A DNA stretch of 64,000 nt, taken from assembly GCA_964422585.1 (NCBI GenBank), contig CAYRBH010000002.1, forward strand, positions 13,428 through 77,427, read 5' to 3'. Made by a program: the position numbers and the translations under genes. The number at the start of each line of letters is the position of its first letter. Position 1 is the first letter of the stretch. Of the stretch, positions 41,512 through 55,120 are shown in pieces. The DNA is from an uncultured Gammaproteobacteria bacterium (GTDB lineage: Bacteria > Patescibacteriota > Patescibacteriia > UBA1558 > 2-01-FULL-52-15). A model generated the notes under the pieces. The model saw nothing but the letters and a program-made list of their open reading frames with translations, was not told the origin of the DNA and made no database searches.

Positions 41512-41562
41512 AAAAACCCCGCCGACCAAGTCGCTGCTTGATGGGCGGGGTTACTGCTTTTT
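41512..41562. terminator. Bidirectional rho-independent terminator at the low-GC / high-GC boundary
   Basis: A7 run, then stem CCCCGCC...GGCGGGG, then a T6 run. It works for the + hydrolase and for the - strand purA. Confidence 0.55.
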
Positions 41563-41568
41563 TCGAAA

Positions 41569-43089
41569 CTACAACCTACTTTCTCGGACGAAAGTCTGCT
41601 CGCGGTCAGGACCCACCGAGACGATCGACAAGGGCCGGCCGCCACTGCGCTCGATTACATCGAGGTAGTTCCGTGCCGCCCGCGGCAGTTTCGCGCAGCT
41701 GGTGATCTCATCGATTGGCTTGGTCCAGCCGGGGTACTTTTCGTACAAGGGGTGACAGTGCGCGAGGAAGGCGGCATCACTGTCGCCCTCATTCACGCGT
41801 TTGCCGGAGAACCACGGGTCTGCACCAAGTTGGTAGTCAGGGCCCTGATACTCATACCGATCGCAGACCGGGATCTCCTTGAGTCCGCTCAAGACATCGA
41901 GCTTGGTCACCGCGAGGATAGTATTCTTCGGCATCCGGTCTGTGACATAGCGTAGCAGGACGCCATCATGCCAGCCGACCCTGCGCGGACGCTTGGTCGT
42001 GGTGCCGTACTCAGCGCCTTTGCGTCTGAGCCAGACGCCGAGTGCGAAAGGACCGCTGTCGAGAAGGCGATCAGTATTCGCATAGCGTTCTCGCTCGAGC
42101 GCCTCATTGACACCCGCAGTATTGCACCAGCGGTCCGAGGCGGAGTCGCCGAGCTCCGTCGGGAAAGGTCCTGCGCCGACACGTGTCGCGTAGGCTTTCA
42201 CGATCCCGATCGTGAGATCGATATCGCGATCGAAGAGGCCAGCTCCTTTCGCAAGGCCGGTGACCGTGCAGTCGCTGGACGTGACATAGGGGTAGTTGCC
42301 ATGATCGATCGACAGCAGGTGGCCTTGAGCGCCTTCCAGGAGCGCTCGCTTGCCTCGACTGAGTTCCTCGCGGATCATCTCGTCGGTGTCGACGATTGAC
42401 TCGTTCAGAACTTCAGCGTAGCGCATGTATGCATCGACTATCGCATCTTCGTTGAAGATCTTTCCGGCTTCGTAGTAGCTGCCATTCGCCAGATGCTCAT
42501 GTTGCATGATCTCGGCGATCAGATCTTCTTCGAAGCCATCGAGGTAATGCTTGTGCTCTGCAAGGTTTTCCCGTAGTTTTGCAACAAATGAGTCTCGGTT
42601 GAGGAGATCATTTGCAACCAGACCGCTTCGTCGGATGTGATCGGTATAGCACGGACCGATGCCTCGACCCGTGGTGCCGATCTTCGCGCCCTTGGCTTTC
42701 GCTTCGCGGATGCGGTCGGCGACCAGATGCTGCGGCAGCACCAATTTCGCCCGATGCGAGATGTAGAGATGATCCCAGGTCAGCCCTTCAGTGTCGAGCT
42801 TGGCGATCTCCCCGAGCAGTATTGCGGGATCGAGAGCAACGCCAGATCCGATTATGCTTTTCTTGCGTTGTTTGTCTCGCAAGATGCCGGATGGGATCAG
42901 GTGAAAGGCCAGTCGTTTGCCGTTGGCGACGATGGTGTGCCCTGCGTTAGCGCCACCAGTTCCTCGGATGACCATATCTGACCAGTCCGCGAACAGATCG
43001 ACCAGCTTGCCTTTGCCCGTGTCTCCCCATTGGGTGCACACGATCGCGACCACTTTGAGGCCGCGAAGCAGATTGAGAACAGGATTCAT
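41569..43089 (-). CDS. purA: Adenylosuccinate synthetase (long form, 506 aa)
   Basis: [10 protein letters not shown]-loop, GTTGRGIGP and GAQG motifs. About 30 aa insertion relative to E. coli-type PurA. GC-rich coding. Confidence 0.85.
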
Positions 43090-44600
43090 TATGCACCGCC
43101 TTTGTAGTTGGGAGCGTCTTTGGTAATGATGATGTCATGCGGACGGGACTCTTCGAATCCCGCGTTAGTATTCCGGTCGAAATCAGCTTTTTTATGCAGC
43201 TCATCCAGGGTCGCAGCACCGGCGTACCACATGCCTTTACGAAGTCCGCCGATGAACTGATGGAGCACCGGTTCCAGGTCGCCGTCATAGGGGACGACAC
43301 CTTCGACGCCCTCAGGAATGAGCTGATTACGAACGGCTGAGCTCTCTGCGTAACGTTCGCGTGAAGACTTGCTCGCCTCCATGGCGCCGAGCGAACCCAT
43401 CCCGCGATAGGCCTTCACCTGTGTGCCACGGAATGTCATGACTTCGCCGGGGGCTTCGGTTGTTCCAGCGAGAACACGACCGAGCATGACTGAGTGCGCT
43501 CCGGTCGCGAGTGCGATAGGGATATCGCCGGTAAAGACGATGCCGCCGTCCGCGCACACTGGCACATCCGAACCGCGGATGGCTAGAGCGCATTGATATA
43601 CAGCAGTAACTTGCGGACAACCGATACCGGCGACCACGCGGGTAGTACAGATGCTGCCCGGTCCTTGTCCTACTTTGACGCCATCGGCGCCCCAGTCGAC
43701 AAGATGTTTCGCTGAGATCCCTTGGGAGATATTGCCGGCGACCACGTCGATGTCGTTGAAACGCGAATCCTTTCGGATCAGCGCGAGAGTTTCTTGCATG
43801 ACTTTGCTGTCGCCATGCGCTTGGTCGATCACGACCACATCCACGCCTTTTTCAGCGAGAGCTTCAAGGCGCTGCAATGCATCGTCATACAGACCGATGG
43901 CAGCACCGACGCGGAGTTGCCCTTTCGGATCGAGATTGTAGTTCGTGGAGGATCCTGTCTTCAGACGAGTGACATCTGAAAACACGTATAGACCCGTGAG
44001 CTTGTTTTCGTCGTCGACGAGCGGGAGCACCTTCTTTTTTGCGCGATGCATAATGTCATAGGCCTGGTCGAACGTCGTTTCGGTCTTGGCGGTGATGACA
44101 TCTGTTGTCATGATATCCCGTGCGGTCAGACAGGAATCTGCACCGAACGTGAAATCGTTCTGTGTGAGCAGGCCGATGAGTCGATGATTCGCGTCGAGAA
44201 CAGGGAAGCTGTAGAAGCTCCAACGATTCTCGGCGCGGCGCTTGTCGATGACCTCGATCGTGTCCGTATCCCGGACCCATATAGGTTTTTCGATCAAGCC
44301 GTTCATGAACAACTTGGTACGGGCGACCTTTGCCGCCTGCTCTTTGGGACCGAGGTTTCGATGAATGATTCCGAGACCTCCGAGCTTCGCCATGGCAATG
44401 GCCATTCTTGTACCCGTCACAGTGTCCATCGCGGCAGACAGGATCGGGATCTTCAATTGCACCCGACGCGAGAAGCGCGACATGATCGAAACATCGGCTG
44501 GCTGTACTTCTGTGTAGCTAGTCTTGAGCCGTACTTCCTTGAAAGCGAGTGCCAACCTGAGCCTCGCCATATCCGCAAAGAATCCGTCTTTCGGGTACAT
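43089..44600 (-). CDS. guaB: IMP dehydrogenase with CBS pair
   Basis: Catalytic loop [10 protein letters not shown] variant ([11 protein letters not shown]). Start set at the internal Met MYPKDGFF; the track ORF extends further 5'. Confidence 0.85.
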
Positions 44601-52965: not shown

Positions 52966-53736
52966 ATGACCATTCGTCGTGACATTCCGCCACACATCGA
53001 CCCGATCGAACTCTGGAAAGCGGCCGGTGGCTTCTACCAGTGCCCGAAAGACGCTGATGGTAAGCGCCTCGGCCCGCTCGTCGGTTACGCGGGGACTTAC
53101 CAGGACGATCTTGACTTGAACAAGCACTATGTCGGCGAAGTATACTTCAACTTCGCCGCGGTCGAACAGTACCCTCGGCCATTGCGTCGTTTCGCTCAAC
53201 TTCTGATGCTGCAATTGGAGCAGGAGGGGGACATCTCTGTCTTTCTCGGCGCTCCGATGGGTGGCATCGGCCTTGCGTTCGCGCTTGGTGACTTCTTCGA
53301 AGACGTTCGTGTCGTCTTCGCAGAGAAGAAAGTTCTTGCTCCGGGATCGGAGCGAGAGCAATCTTCGCTCGTCATCGCGCGGCATGAACTCGATCCCGAC
53401 GATCGAGTCGTCATCATCGAAGATGTCTGTAACAACTTCTCCACGACTGAGCAGCTAATCAACCTCGTTCAGGCCTCCGGCGCCACCGTTTGCGCCATCG
53501 GCTGCGCCTTGAATCGTTCGGAGATGAGTTGCTACCATCCGCCCTCGGCGCCTCTGGGCGATCATCTGCCCGTTCGATCCGTCATCCACATTCCTTCGCC
53601 GCAGTTCAGGCAGAAGGATCTCGAGGTCTGGGAAGACGTCAGGGATGGCAACATCGTGTGGAAGCCGAAGGTCGACTGGGAACGACTCATGACAGCGATG
53701 AACGCATCGGGTCAGGAGACTCCCCATGGCAAGTAG
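52966..53736 (+). CDS. Phosphoribosyltransferase-fold protein, possible divergent orotate phosphoribosyltransferase
   Basis: PRPP-binding-like motif DRVVIIEDVCNNFSTT. Adjacent to pyrF. Confidence 0.45.
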   Translation: MTIRRDIPPHIDPIELWKAAGGFYQCPKDADGKRLGPLVGYAGTYQDDLDLNKHYVGEVYFNFAAVEQYPRPLRRFAQLLMLQLEQEGDISVFLGAPMGGIGLAFALGDFFEDVRVVFAEKKVLAPGSEREQSSLVIARHELDPDDRVVIIEDVCNNFSTTEQLINLVQASGATVCAIGCALNRSEMSCYHPPSAPLGDHLPVRSVIHIPSPQFRQKDLEVWEDVRDGNIVWKPKVDWERLMTAMNASGQETPHGK

Positions 53737-54083
53737 CCGAAATGCCCGCCGGCGTCGAAGACGCGCGCGTAAGGGCGGTCAGTACTTCAAGCAAGGCCGC
53801 AAAGTCAAAGCCTGCTATCATAACTACTGGCCGCACTCCGGTCGCCGCTGAGCGAGCGCGGCCGCTCATTCACTCATAACAAACCGCAGAATAGGAGGCT
53901 GCGGAGGAGGCAAAGGTTAGCTATGGCTAACCTTTTTGCTTTTGCTGAGTAGGTTGAAATTTTCTGGTACTTGACTTTTTAAAGTAGATTATGTATAGTA
54001 GGTGTTTAGTTTGTTCTGCTCGCATAGTGCGAGTAGGGCGCGGGTTCATTTAATGTTTCCTTTCAAGGCATAGGAGAAGAAAC

Positions 54084-54608
54084 GTGTATTACTGCGTCGT
54101 TTTGAGTCGCCCTGATAGTCGCGGTCACCTCAAGGAAGCCTTGGCTGCTAAACTTCGTCGCAAGGACGAGCGTCTGCACACCAATCTCACTGACGCTTAC
54201 GACGAGTTCGGCATCGCGATGAGCGAGATCTCGTTTTTTGCGAACAACCAGGAGGTCTGTATGATCGCCGGTGAGCGTCTGCTCGACGGCGGTTCCGGCA
54301 CGGCCTTCGCTCAGCGTTTCAAGGCGAAGTACCCGAAAGGGATCTTCATCCTTTTCACGCAGTTCAGCCTGGACGGCATCGACACGGACAATCCTCTGAT
54401 CGACGCCGTGATCGCCCAGCATCCCGGCGGAAACAATCCGTTCGAGACGCTCGCCGAAATTCTGGTCACGCATCTGCACTTCATCGATGTGCATTCCCTG
54501 AAGCGAGAGCACCCCGCGCTGCTGCTTCGTCACGAAGTGCGGGTGCTGCAGGAGCGCAAGAAGGCCGAGTATCGTTTCTCGCGAGTTGCGGTGGAAAGAC
54601 GGTCGTAA
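54084..54608 (+). CDS. Hypothetical protein
   Basis: 174 aa. Preceded by a TTGACT-17-TATAGT-like promoter in an AT-rich spacer and followed by a hairpin and T-run. Confidence 0.35.
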   Translation: MYYCVVLSRPDSRGHLKEALAAKLRRKDERLHTNLTDAYDEFGIAMSEISFFANNQEVCMIAGERLLDGGSGTAFAQRFKAKYPKGIFILFTQFSLDGIDTDNPLIDAVIAQHPGGNNPFETLAEILVTHLHFIDVHSLKREHPALLLRHEVRVLQERKKAEYRFSRVAVERRS

Positions 54609-55120
54609 GGCCTGCCTTGAACGAAAACAGTTGCCTGCCGTGCGTAGTGTGCACGGTGGGCGTTTTTGTTTGCAGAAAAATATTGAACTGTGAGCGAGTC
54701 TTTGTTAGGATACTTAGGTCAGTAAGTACCTTGAGAGAAAAATAAGCCGTCGAAGTGTCTCGTTGATATGAAAAAAAGAATATTCTTTGGTGGAATAGTC
54801 TGAGTGAATGAGTATGCCGTCCGCAGCAGTCGACAGCTTAAGAAAAAGTGACTAACAGTTCTCACGGGATGGTTCGTCTTCAGTGGATGCTTCCTGGGTC
54901 TCGGCTCGGAATATGCTACTGTTGGATAAACCAAAAATCCCCGAAGGGACTTTTGGCGAAAAGCGATTTCGATGCCGTACATTTGGTGGAACGGCATCAC
55001 CGATATAGTACCACTGCAGTTTTTGAATTGTCAACTACTACAACGGGTGATCGCTTGTGCGATCATTTTTTTGCTAATTAGTGGCGATGTCATGGGTGAC
55101 GATCCGTGGCAGCGCTGTAA

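Follow-up and report, generated by a model that had tools for sequence, protein, structure and literature searches.

We analysed a 64-kb stretch of contig CAYRBH010000002.1 (the window), and in particular the GC-rich DNA located in it between tig, which encodes trigger factor, and ssb, which encodes single-stranded DNA-binding protein. Judged from the relatives of its NusA, the window is part of the chromosome of a Komeilibacteria-lineage bacterium of the candidate phyla radiation (CPR), or Patescibacteria. We consider it fairly probable that the GC-rich DNA is a mosaic formed in several events at a variable hotspot delimited by tig, with its neighbouring tRNA genes, and by ssb, and that it was acquired from other, GC-richer Patescibacteria. 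This reading is built on a shift in base composition, the boundaries of the transcription units, the identities of the genes, their order in related genomes and a switch between two PyrF subfamilies, all of which are directly observed. The locus is an ordinary kind of genomic island for the CPR group, containing one non-coding unit of about 1 kb, named X below, that lacks an explanation.

Three GC-rich segments are present, I (41569-44600), II (45879-48133) and III (49920-54608). Their GC contents are 0.570, 0.567 and 0.567, respectively, against 0.482 over 45 kb of backbone. In a 1-kb profile, GC content is 0.57-0.58 at 42-48 kb, apart from the kilobase at 44-45 kb (0.48), falls to 0.46-0.47 at 48-50 kb and returns to 0.56-0.58 at 50-54 kb. 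Outside the segments it is mostly 0.40-0.52. The higher GC content of the block, given in a preliminary description of this DNA, thus stands, but the backbone value of 42-47% given with it does not: the backbone is at about 48%, and only the immediate flanks are at 43-46%. The GC content at synonymous third codon positions (GC3s) is 0.65+-0.07 for the 10 open reading frames (ORFs) of the block and 0.50+-0.06 for 20 backbone genes (Mann-Whitney p=2e-4). A leave-one-out likelihood of synonymous codon choice classifies all 20 backbone genes as backbone-like and nine of the ten block ORFs as block-like. The tetranucleotide z-scores of the block correlate with those of the rest of the window at r=0.47, whereas 14 control chunks of the same size give 0.59-0.77; the two halves of the block correlate with each other at r=0.22, a value that is noisy at 5 kb each. 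GC3 and tetranucleotide signatures, whose uniformity would have counted against the first, by-eye estimate, are therefore non-uniform along the window, and they and codon usage each separate the segments from the backbone. Because the shift is present in synonymous sites as well as in tetranucleotides, it goes beyond GC content driven by amino acids. The composition of the block is foreign to the backbone. Conserved or highly expressed genes of the window (nusA, tig, hppA, dnaA, dnaN, ssb and trxB) have GC3s values of 0.41-0.57, the level of the backbone.

The block is not the single continuous one that had been proposed. An operon encoding an ABC ATPase and an ABC-2 permease (48219-49773, + strand; Pfam ABC_tran and ABC2_membrane) is inserted between segments II and III, with a GC content of 0.460 and backbone-like codon usage (log-likelihood ratios, LLR, of -0.15 and -0.09). 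It divides the GC-rich DNA, in which at least five transcription units can be distinguished.

Measured over 600 nt, GC content changes from 0.43 to 0.61 at 41.5 kb, from 0.56 to 0.44 at 48.15 kb, from 0.46 to 0.55 at 49.8 kb and from 0.56 to 0.46 at 54.6 kb. Every one of these switches falls on an intrinsic terminator, so that the switches are transcription-unit boundaries. The left boundary is as sharp as first described. It is a bidirectional terminator (41512-41562, both strands) between a convergent Ser-hydrolase gene and purA, whose 9-bp GC stem has an A7 run on one side and a T6 run on the other; the folding free energy (dG) is -24.8 kcal/mol on the + strand and -25.2 kcal/mol on the - strand (z -3.8 and -4.4). 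The sigma factor gene that closes segment II is followed by a terminator at 48154-48200 (+), in which a 12-bp GC-rich stem precedes UUUUCAUUUUUU. A hairpin plus T-run (49838-49877, +) follows the ABC operon. The right boundary is a terminator at 54632-54672 (+; dG -26.9 kcal/mol), placed after a 174-residue ORF. Inside segment III, a strong hairpin (about 51932-51985, +) follows a 109-residue ORF and splits the segment into a MazG-like-purD unit and a pyrF-phosphoribosyltransferase unit. Another terminator (53912-53945, +; 10-bp stem plus T-run) separates the phosphoribosyltransferase (PRTase) gene from the 174-residue ORF.

AT-rich spacers with host-like promoters had been reported within the block, and sigma70-like matches are indeed found in them. 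The best match in 41-55.5 kb is on the + strand at 44751-44779 (TTGACA-17-TATAGT with TG, 11/12). It belongs to a divergent promoter region (44737-44779, both strands; local GC 0.29-0.42), in which the + strand match points toward X and a - strand match (44765-44737, 9/12) points toward guaB-purA. The other matches precede the 174-residue ORF (53971-53999, +; TTGACT-17-TATAGT, 10/12) and lie in the spacer before the gene of a ParB-like protein (45777-45806, 9/12). With a promoter match and a terminator of its own for each unit, the genes look like established residents that are expressed separately, in line with the earlier proposal.

Assignment of the host and comparison of the interval with relatives rely on conserved neighbours. 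For NusA, whose gene is 8 kb to the left of the block, about 20 relatives reach at least 70% identity, and they form a graded series (96, 88-90, 80-83 and 70-76%). Those that are named are Candidatus Komeilibacteria, at 80% and at 60-66%. The order NusA-HppA-Tig is collinear in the window and in four comparison contigs with tig, L015, L016, L017 and L019. L017, an ENA contig of 34 kb, encodes a NusA and an HppA that share 75% and 79% identity with the window proteins, and L019 is a more distant Komeilibacteria genome, used as outgroup. The left anchor, tig (36934-38214, +), encodes a protein 86% identical to that of L015, 55% to that of L016 and 47% to that of L017. It is followed by genes for tRNA-Gly(GCC) and tRNA-Leu(TAA) (40159-40399, +; ARAGORN and Rfam). 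The same pair is found after tig in L017 and in L019, about 3 kb downstream in the latter, and tRNA-Leu(TAA) is found in L016. The right anchor, ssb (55121-55549, +; Pfam SSB), has a backbone-like composition and shares 59% identity with its L017 counterpart, located after the PRTase-like gene.

In L017 the order is NusA-HppA-Tig-tRNAGly-tRNALeu-PurD-78aa-PyrF-PRTase-like-SSB, and tig and ssb are 4.7 kb apart, against 16.9 kb in the window. The guaB-purA pair, X and the genes of the ParB-like protein and the sigma factor are absent from the L017 tig-ssb interval. In L019, unrelated genes follow tig. Since content differs between the window, L017 and L019, the tig/tRNA-ssb interval (38.2-55.1 kb) is a variable hotspot.

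L017 also shows that part of the block occupies an old place. L017 5664-9047 and window 50295-53736 correspond to the same slot, with purD, a small ORF, pyrF, a PRTase-like gene and then ssb in the same order. The lone purD, regarded as odd in the preliminary description, is therefore a feature of this locus in the lineage and not a peculiarity of an imported island; its position near the origin, also held to be odd, has no bearing on where the block came from. The proteins encoded in the two slots differ. Window PyrF (52143-52919, +; 258 residues) is an orotidine monophosphate decarboxylase of subfamily 1, the classic one (NF001273, 230 bits for a cutoff of 193; TIGR01740, 156 bits for a cutoff of 92). 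L017 PyrF belongs to subfamily 2 (TIGR02127, 223 bits), and the two can be aligned only at 25% identity over 77 residues. Because two subfamilies are involved, fast divergence cannot explain the PyrF difference. The PRTases of the window and L017 resemble each other only in the region of the phosphoribosyl pyrophosphate (PRPP) loop. Window PurD (50295-51572, +; 425 residues) contains the three GARS domains of Pfam and scores 359 bits against TIGR00877 (cutoff 288). It is 43-45% identical to L017 PurD, no closer than it is to the PurD of unrelated bacteria, and the GC3 of purD is 0.69 in the window against a native-like 0.47 in L017. Most likely, to judge from these comparisons, the window cassette from purD to the PRTase gene replaced a functional equivalent.

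The window PRTase (52966-53736, +; 256 residues) is a divergent type-I enzyme (Pfam Pribosyltran, E=1.2e-3) nearest to orotate PRTases. Its best NCBIfam match is pyrE_Therm, at 36 bits for a cutoff of 150, with XPRT and APRT models scoring nearly as high, so that the support extends to the type-I PRTase fold and the PRPP loop. An orotate PRTase role is suggested by its place next to pyrF, both in the window and in L017.

Segment I carries purA and guaB. The purA gene (41569-43089, - strand; 506 residues; GC 0.58, GC3s 0.67) encodes an adenylosuccinate synthase (Pfam Adenylsucc_synt, 455 bits). Its product is PurA, above the equivalog cutoff (NF002223, 446 bits for a cutoff of 402); the PurZ model gives only 116 bits (cutoff 300). 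The protein had been called an unusually long form with an insertion. This does not hold, since the best 120 PurA homologues are all 489-520 residues long and the named ones are, with one exception, from CPR: Liptonbacteria, Zambryskibacteria, Sungbacteria, Falkowbacteria, Andersenbacteria and "Patescibacteria group", next to one "Pacearchaeota archaeon" record. The 506-residue protein is thus the normal CPR form. Among these best 120 homologues, Komeilibacteria are absent from the named matches, unlike what is seen with NusA, and only two exceed 54% identity (75% and 71%), both on 2-kb contigs. The adjoining gene (43089-44600, -; 503 residues) forms an operon with purA and encodes an inosine monophosphate (IMP) dehydrogenase with a pair of CBS domains (Pfam IMPDH, 440 bits, plus CBS). 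Its product is very probably GuaB on the model scores: it reaches 475.4 bits against TIGR01302, just under the cutoff of 481.5, and is far above the GuaB1 and GMP-reductase models. Among the species-representative genomes listed, the best guaB match is Amycolatopsis at 44%, and Legionella is at 40%.

Comparison contigs with purA (L012, L013, L014 and P0027) were used to examine this pair. The adjacency guaB->purA is kept in L013, whose guaB is 54% identical to that of the window, and in L014. In L012 and in the P0027 contig, a gene without assigned identity abuts purA upstream, and the adjacency probably exists there too. From its gene order, guaB-purA is a conserved CPR operon. Given a purA of CPR form in an operon conserved in CPR, any donor would be another CPR bacterium, which leaves no place for a donor from a foreign, high-GC phylum. 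The contigs with the closest guaB-purA relatives are GC-richer than the backbone (L012, 0.61; L013, 0.56).

Contrary to what a description of the block alone implied, the window contains other compositional anomalies. Between 38.3 and 40.0 kb the DNA is AT-richer (0.40), and at 12.6-14.1 kb it is GC-richer than the block itself (0.60-0.65). The first corresponds to a gene pair directly 3' of tig (38256-40015, +; GC 0.40, GC3s 0.35), encoding a histidine-phosphatase-family protein and a 335-residue protein without assigned function. Its codon usage departs from the backbone in the direction opposite to that of the block, so that the tig-ssb interval contains at least three compositional classes. 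The second patch lies elsewhere (12600-14114, +). It contains two ORFs of about 245 residues with signal-peptide-like N-termini, dissimilar to each other, with GC contents of 0.60 and 0.645 and GC3s values of 0.76 and 0.86. Their codon usage is block-like but more extreme, and neither has a family match in Pfam, NCBIfam or PHROG.

In the history that we favour, the interval would be a mosaic in which the AT-rich pair and backbone-like genes (the DUF1761 gene, the Ser-hydrolase gene and the ABC transporter) are combined with three GC-rich segments. The latter would be made of units of CPR-type genes, namely guaB-purA, ParB-like plus sigma, MazG-like plus purD, pyrF plus PRTase, and the 174-residue protein. 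Several acquisitions from other, GC-richer Patescibacteria are the most likely origin of these units, and a resident purD-x-pyrF-PRTase cassette would have been replaced in place by a functionally equivalent, non-orthologous one. No mobility machinery is visible, and the DNA would probably have been taken up and then recombined through conserved flanking sequence. Once in place, each unit would be transcribed from a sigma70-type promoter of its own, with intrinsic terminators shielding it from its neighbours. What we infer from the observations given above comprises the donors and the direction of transfer, how many events took place and by what mechanism, and which physiological role the genes have.

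Several points weigh against this history. The window is a partial view of a genome of at least 513 kb. The contigs of the relatives are short, which makes the absence of block genes from near relatives weak evidence. In a neighbour-joining tree, window and L017 PurD are paired, both on long branches, and purD may have diverged rapidly in place. No integrase or transposase domain was found among the interval ORFs with Pfam, NCBIfam and PHROG, and neither an att-like partial tRNA copy nor a direct repeat of at least 12 nt at the junctions was found; a mechanistic footprint of insertion is therefore missing. No donor was identified, and PurD, the PRTase, the ParB-like protein and the 174-residue ORF have no close relative. 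Finally, the same genes are GC-elevated in distant genomes. In L002, a Parcubacteria metagenome-assembled genome (MAG; GCA_046050145.1, 38% GC), the ParB-like and sigma genes (10001-11858) have a GC content of 0.48 against 0.34-0.39 for their neighbours, about 10 points higher as in the window, and a GC3 of 0.42-0.50 against 0.21-0.36. In L013, guaB-purA is at 0.60 and its neighbours at about 0.55, a difference of 4-5 points. In L017, the PRTase-like gene is at 0.58 (about 9 points higher) and purD, pyrF and ssb are at 0.52-0.53 (3-5 points higher), for a backbone at 0.47-0.49. Such an elevation may point to an effect specific to these genes, or to mobile cassettes of great age. Alternatively, the shared elevation could come from cassettes circulating among CPR bacteria and tending to originate from GC-richer lineages.

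These observations nourish the best of the competing explanations, a distinctly less probable one, in which the genes are old residents, or very old CPR cassettes, without recent transfer. Their GC content and GC3 would be maintained gene by gene, for instance by biased gene conversion or by selection acting on codon choice, mRNA stability or expression level. The differences in purD, pyrF and PRTase from L017 would then be due to rapid change, or to a replacement that took place long ago on the L017 side. The elevation in L002, L013 and L017, the sister position of the two PurD proteins, the lack of mobility genes and att sites and the host-like spacers and promoters all agree with it. It is difficult to reconcile with the backbone-level GC3s of the conserved genes listed above, with a shift that affects synonymous sites and tetranucleotides, with two PyrF subfamilies that divergence could not interconvert and with the wholly different content of the interval in L019. 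The distribution of relatives within one protein database is also patchy: NusA has its graded 70-96% series, whereas purA has two relatives above 54% and the ParB-like protein none above 38%, and the block proteins lack a graded series like that of NusA. Transfer is favoured over an intrinsic composition because other conserved genes are not elevated and because the PyrF switch is beyond divergence.

The preliminary description had viewed the genes as a cargo of nucleotide-interconversion functions from a higher-GC donor. Taken as a single island, gained at one stroke from outside the host lineage, this reading is in our view very unlikely. It would account for the uniform GC content of about 0.57 in the three segments, for a coherent block-like codon usage and for the sharp left boundary at a terminator, with tRNA genes 1.2 kb further left. 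The ABC operon that splits the block, the low, if noisy, correlation of its halves, the CPR long form of purA and the presence of guaB-purA and ParB-like-plus-sigma arrangements in other CPR genomes argue against it. So do a purD...PRTase slot that is ancestral to the lineage, the lack of integrase or att site, and a guaB that is only 44% identical to its best match among the species-representative genomes listed. Of the proposal that the cargo came from a higher-GC donor, the foreign composition is retained; a single island from a foreign phylum is not supported.

An assembly or binning chimera, in which GC-rich contigs of a co-occurring organism would have been joined to a Komeilibacteria backbone, is highly improbable. 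A 63.5% GC organism from the same sample as the host (L005/L006; GCA_964551765.1; Logan SRR12313479) does encode a paralog-level homologue of the ParB-like protein. However, a Logan contig (L001) from SRR12313479 is 100% identical to window 44821-54980 (10,160 bp), spanning three of the four GC junctions and crossing both ends of the backbone-like ABC operon; the 41.5-kb junction lies outside it, as the contig starts at 44821. Block and flank proteins occur together on NCBI contigs of 513 kb and 91 kb, and three assemblies are in agreement. Ten window proteins that were looked up are all singletons at 90% identity, confined to the contigs of this organism (the two NCBI contigs and Logan). Furthermore, each junction coincides with a terminator and leaves the genes on either side intact, the AT-rich promoter spacers are host-like, ssb follows the PRTase gene as in L017, and the L005 ParB-like protein is only 31% identical. 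The earlier judgement that a raw chimeric join is unlikely is supported.

That the block is what is left of an integrated phage, plasmid or defence element is highly improbable, even though phages and plasmids typically carry genes of the ParB-like, sigma, MazG-like and nucleotide-metabolism kinds, tRNA genes are close by, the ParB-like protein and the sigma factor match PHROG families, the C-terminal half of the sigma factor matches MzaA models and the 115-residue MazG-like protein has a marginal match to MazZ: those PHROG matches are generic and the only ones, the MzaA match is limited to generic sigma70 domains (273 bits for an 800-bit cutoff), the purA product is PurA and not PurZ (446 against 116 bits), viral purA-like matches reach 32-43% identity and CPR matches up to 75%, no relative of the ParB-like protein is found in the 2.9 M viral contigs of IMG/VR, and the interval has no structural, integrase or replication genes and no small ORF with a PHROG or PADLOC family.

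The ParB/Noc/KorB-like protein of segment II (45879-46805, +; 308 residues; GC 0.58, GC3s 0.70) contains the Pfam ParB_N and HTH_ParB domains (PF02195, PF17762) and passes TIGR00180 (92 bits for a cutoff of 58). It shares with the ParB/Noc/KorB family the ParB N-terminal domain, the GERR arginine patch (GERRFIA at residues 82-88) and the helix-turn-helix (HTH). It differs from it by the lack of a ParA in the window and of a recognisable parS, and by the tiny size of its own family, with five real homologues at 31-38% identity in genomes of 38% to 64% GC. The lack of a ParA partner had been noted and is confirmed, no ParA-type Walker A motif (KGGxGK[ST]) being present in any frame of the 64 kb. 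No parS is recognisable, and the palindromes in X are single-copy in the window.

The neighbouring gene encodes a sigma-70 factor of RpoD type (46853-48133, +; 426 residues; GC 0.56, GC3s 0.69). It contains Pfam sigma-70 regions 2, 3 and 4, and its best NCBIfam matches are RpoD-type models, all below equivalog cutoffs (TIGR02393, 243 bits for 354), in agreement with the initial RpoD-like call. L002, too, has a gene of the sigma-70 family after its ParB-like gene, and in both L002 and the window a DUF1761 gene is close by. A conserved orthologous pair was considered and is only half true, as the L002 sigma factor is of a different, 264-residue type, 33% identical over 97 residues. The gene next to the ParB-like gene is of the sigma-70 family in two of three informative contexts. 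The homologue of L005/L006, at 31% identity, lacks a sigma gene beside it and has diverged much too far for its organism to be the donor; L005/L006 nevertheless indicate that GC-rich carriers of this rare ParB-like family co-occur with the host in the sample. Since a sigma gene is next door in two of three contexts, a KorB-like role would fit better than segregation. With no ParA in the window, this ParB-like CTPase-HTH protein is more likely to be a KorB- or Noc-like regulator acting with the adjacent sigma factor than a segregation protein.

Segment III begins with a 115-residue protein that probably belongs to the MazG/PRA-PH-like superfamily (49920-50267, +). It has no direct match in Pfam or NCBIfam. 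It belongs to a widespread family of proteins of about 105 residues (1222 representative homologues), in which E49, E50, E53 and D65 are invariant and of which 10/40 members weakly match PRA-PH and 5/40 MazG-like models. The metal-binding motif of all-alpha nucleoside triphosphate (NTP) pyrophosphohydrolases is EExxE...D. Thus, the MazG/HisE-like assignment is supported at superfamily level, through these weak matches and the invariant acidic residues, and not by a direct family match. The resemblance to phage MazZ (7ody) is marginal (E=1.6). Single-sequence AlphaFold models of the 115-residue and 174-residue proteins have mean confidence scores (pLDDT) of 59 and 40, too poor for a fold search. 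The 109-residue ORF (51598-51927, +) is doubtful. With a GC3s of 0.46 and an LLR of -0.09, it is the sole ORF of the block that is backbone-like or non-coding; it has no family match in Pfam, NCBIfam or PHROG scans and is probably not a gene. The 174-residue ORF (54084-54608, +), without assigned function, has the most block-like codon usage (GC3s 0.73, LLR +0.21) and no family match in Pfam, NCBIfam, PHROG or PADLOC scans. The calls of purA, guaB, purD, pyrF and a divergent PRTase made in the preliminary description were all borne out by Pfam and NCBIfam. For PurD, no relative above about 47% was found in metagenome contigs. The 80 loci recovered are generic (38-45% in the best tblastn segment), and none has the architecture of the cassette.

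Two regions near the subjects discussed above deserve description. The dnaN, dnaA and rnpA-like genes are at 15001-18466, with AT-rich spacers at 16108-16356 (GC 0.34) and 17734-18115 (GC 0.42), and the minimum of the cumulative GC skew is between about 14 and 21 kb. This region is the probable chromosomal origin region, about 24 kb to the left of the block. In L017, the ssb is directly followed, at 10098-11483, by a PF05635 (23S_rRNA_IVP) gene with a weak match to bAvd (PF22296) and then by a gene for a large protein with an LTD domain; nothing comparable is present at that place in the window. bAvd is linked with diversity-generating retroelements, and L017 10098-11483 may be part of such an element.

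X is a predicted orphan non-coding transcription unit of about 0.96 kb (44786-45745, +), delimited by a promoter match and a terminator and devoid of coding signal. It lies between guaB and the ParB-like gene, in the window's longest intergenic spacer; this measures 1278 nt, and the second longest 512 nt. A coding sequence at 44990-45750 was implied by the preliminary description. No coding signal is found there, and about 1 kb inside the block is non-coding, which had been missed. X has no ORF longer than 86 residues, its period-3 power is 1.7 against 9-14 for genes, and log-odds under a codon model are negative in all six frames, at the level of shuffled sequence.

X is composed of three parts. 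The 5' domain (44822-44987, +) is a 166-nt multi-branch structure with a closing stem of 21-22 bp, made by an inverted repeat (44822-44842 / 44967-44987) that is 90% complementary. It folds with a dG of -71 kcal/mol on the + strand (z -7.2, none of 200 shuffles as good) and of -56 kcal/mol on the - strand (z -4.6). In a window-wide fold scan it is in the extreme tail, the remaining top windows being ordinary terminators. The second part is a GC-rich core (44996-45690, +; 695 nt, 61% GC) without coding signal and with a fold z of -1.7, 2/20 shuffles folding equally well. The third is a terminator on the + strand only (45694-45745), GGGGGACC...GGTCCCCC then UUUUAUUUU, with a dG of -34.4 kcal/mol and a z of -6.0. 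As a whole, X folds with a z of -7.9 to -8.9, against +1.9 to -4.75 for 13 coding controls of the same length, a value inflated because X joins an AT-rich to a GC-rich part; GC-rich coding DNA of the block itself reaches z values of -4.1 to -4.75.

Known categories do not accommodate X. A pseudogene was rejected on the period-3 power, the shuffle-level six-frame scores and the lack of any Pfam match for its ten longest stop-free fragments. A known RNA was rejected because, over three ranges, neither the gathering threshold nor E<=10 gave an Rfam match other than noise from models of eukaryotic long non-coding RNAs and microRNAs. A repeat, an array, a miniature inverted-repeat transposable element or a parS cluster was rejected because no tandem repeats are present and the palindromes are single-copy. 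No second copy of X exists in the window or in 1.39 Mb of retrieved loci. No homologues were found by blastn in phages and plasmids, by a 20-mer search of metagenome contigs or, for the 21-mer of the 5' stem, in viral sequences. Two IMG/VR contigs, L042 (8816-8836) and L043 (6667-6688), contain an exact 21-22-nt match to X (window 45347-45368). We judge it due to chance, as it does not extend and the two contigs are 91% identical to each other. The Logan contig L001 starts at 44821, so that its first nucleotide immediately precedes the 21-nt inverted repeat closing the 5' domain. This start could reflect chance or low coverage in the AT-rich promoter spacer, or the 5' element could be repeated elsewhere in the genome.

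Long GC-rich intergenic regions serve to nominate structured non-coding RNAs in the GC-IGR/DIMPL approach (PMC8723152). X resembles the candidates of that approach in being the longest intergenic region, with a core at 61% GC in a 48% backbone, a promoter match and a terminator. It differs from them in that its core shows no excess folding (z -1.7), the structured part being the AT-rich 166-nt 5' domain, and in that no homologues of it were found. X would have arrived with the GC-rich DNA or arisen with such DNA. That X is a functional RNA is distinctly possible, with the balance against it. Our preferred guess is that X would act as a regulatory RNA or leader, with its function residing in the structured 5' domain. 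It may be specific to the lineage, or be the leader of the ParB-like/sigma operon. Just as plausibly, X consists of a structured 5' element and, behind it, inert DNA that was acquired. X is the sole element of the locus with real discovery potential.

Two less ordinary readings are left open together, and we regard them as rather unlikely. In one, X or its 166-nt domain would be a new, lineage-restricted structured regulatory RNA tied to the ParB-like and sigma genes, either as a leader-attenuator or as a stand-alone RNA. In the other, purD-small ORF-pyrF-PRTase would be a module of constant make-up whose parts are swapped among CPR lineages. If the module reading were true, the "lone" PurD would have a role outside canonical de novo purine synthesis.

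Among known systems, classical tRNA-associated integrative islands have atypical GC content and codon usage, a nearby tRNA gene and variable content, together with an integrase and a repeat of the tRNA 3' end. The locus shares with them the atypical composition, the close tRNA genes and a content that varies among relatives. It differs by the lack of integrase and of tRNA 3'-end repeat, and its GC-rich DNA begins 1.2 kb beyond the tRNA genes, after two backbone-like genes. Xenologous, or non-orthologous, gene displacement in situ is an established concept of comparative genomics. It corresponds to what is seen between the window and L017, with the same locus, order and functions, a different PyrF subfamily and unrelated PRTase sequences. 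Here, however, the polarity comes from composition alone (foreign GC3 for the window cassette, native-like purD in L017), and no donor was identified.

Hundreds of genomic islands have been described in Patescibacteria MAGs from groundwater, mostly exchanged within the group, and their cargo includes transcription and nucleotide-metabolism genes (Gios et al. 2025, mSystems, PMC12455944). The window shares with these islands an atypical multi-gene region in a streamlined CPR genome, transcription and nucleotide cargo and closest relatives in CPR. It differs from them in having units interleaved with native genes, no mobility genes and a slot that already holds equivalents in a relative. Because of these published islands with similar cargo, we regard the locus as a new example of a known phenomenon. 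It is a well-bounded example: the units are of operon size, have promoters of their own, are insulated by terminators and share one variable interval beside conserved tRNA genes. It fits surveys reporting mostly within-Patescibacteria horizontal transfer and adds detail at the level of one locus, leaving the general picture unchanged.

With regard to physiology, guaB-purA would provide both exits from IMP, towards GMP and AMP, and the PRTase together with PyrF would convert orotate to UMP. The MazG/PRA-PH-like enzyme would contribute to NTP clean-up or processing. Partner enzymes of PurD, if any, would be encoded beyond the window. Taken together, these genes would top up nucleotide interconversion and salvage in an organism without full de novo pathways. 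CPR bacteria are thought to depend on their hosts for nucleotides. The gain, retention and swapping of a few nucleotide enzymes at this locus bear on how complete the host dependence of CPR/Patescibacteria truly is.

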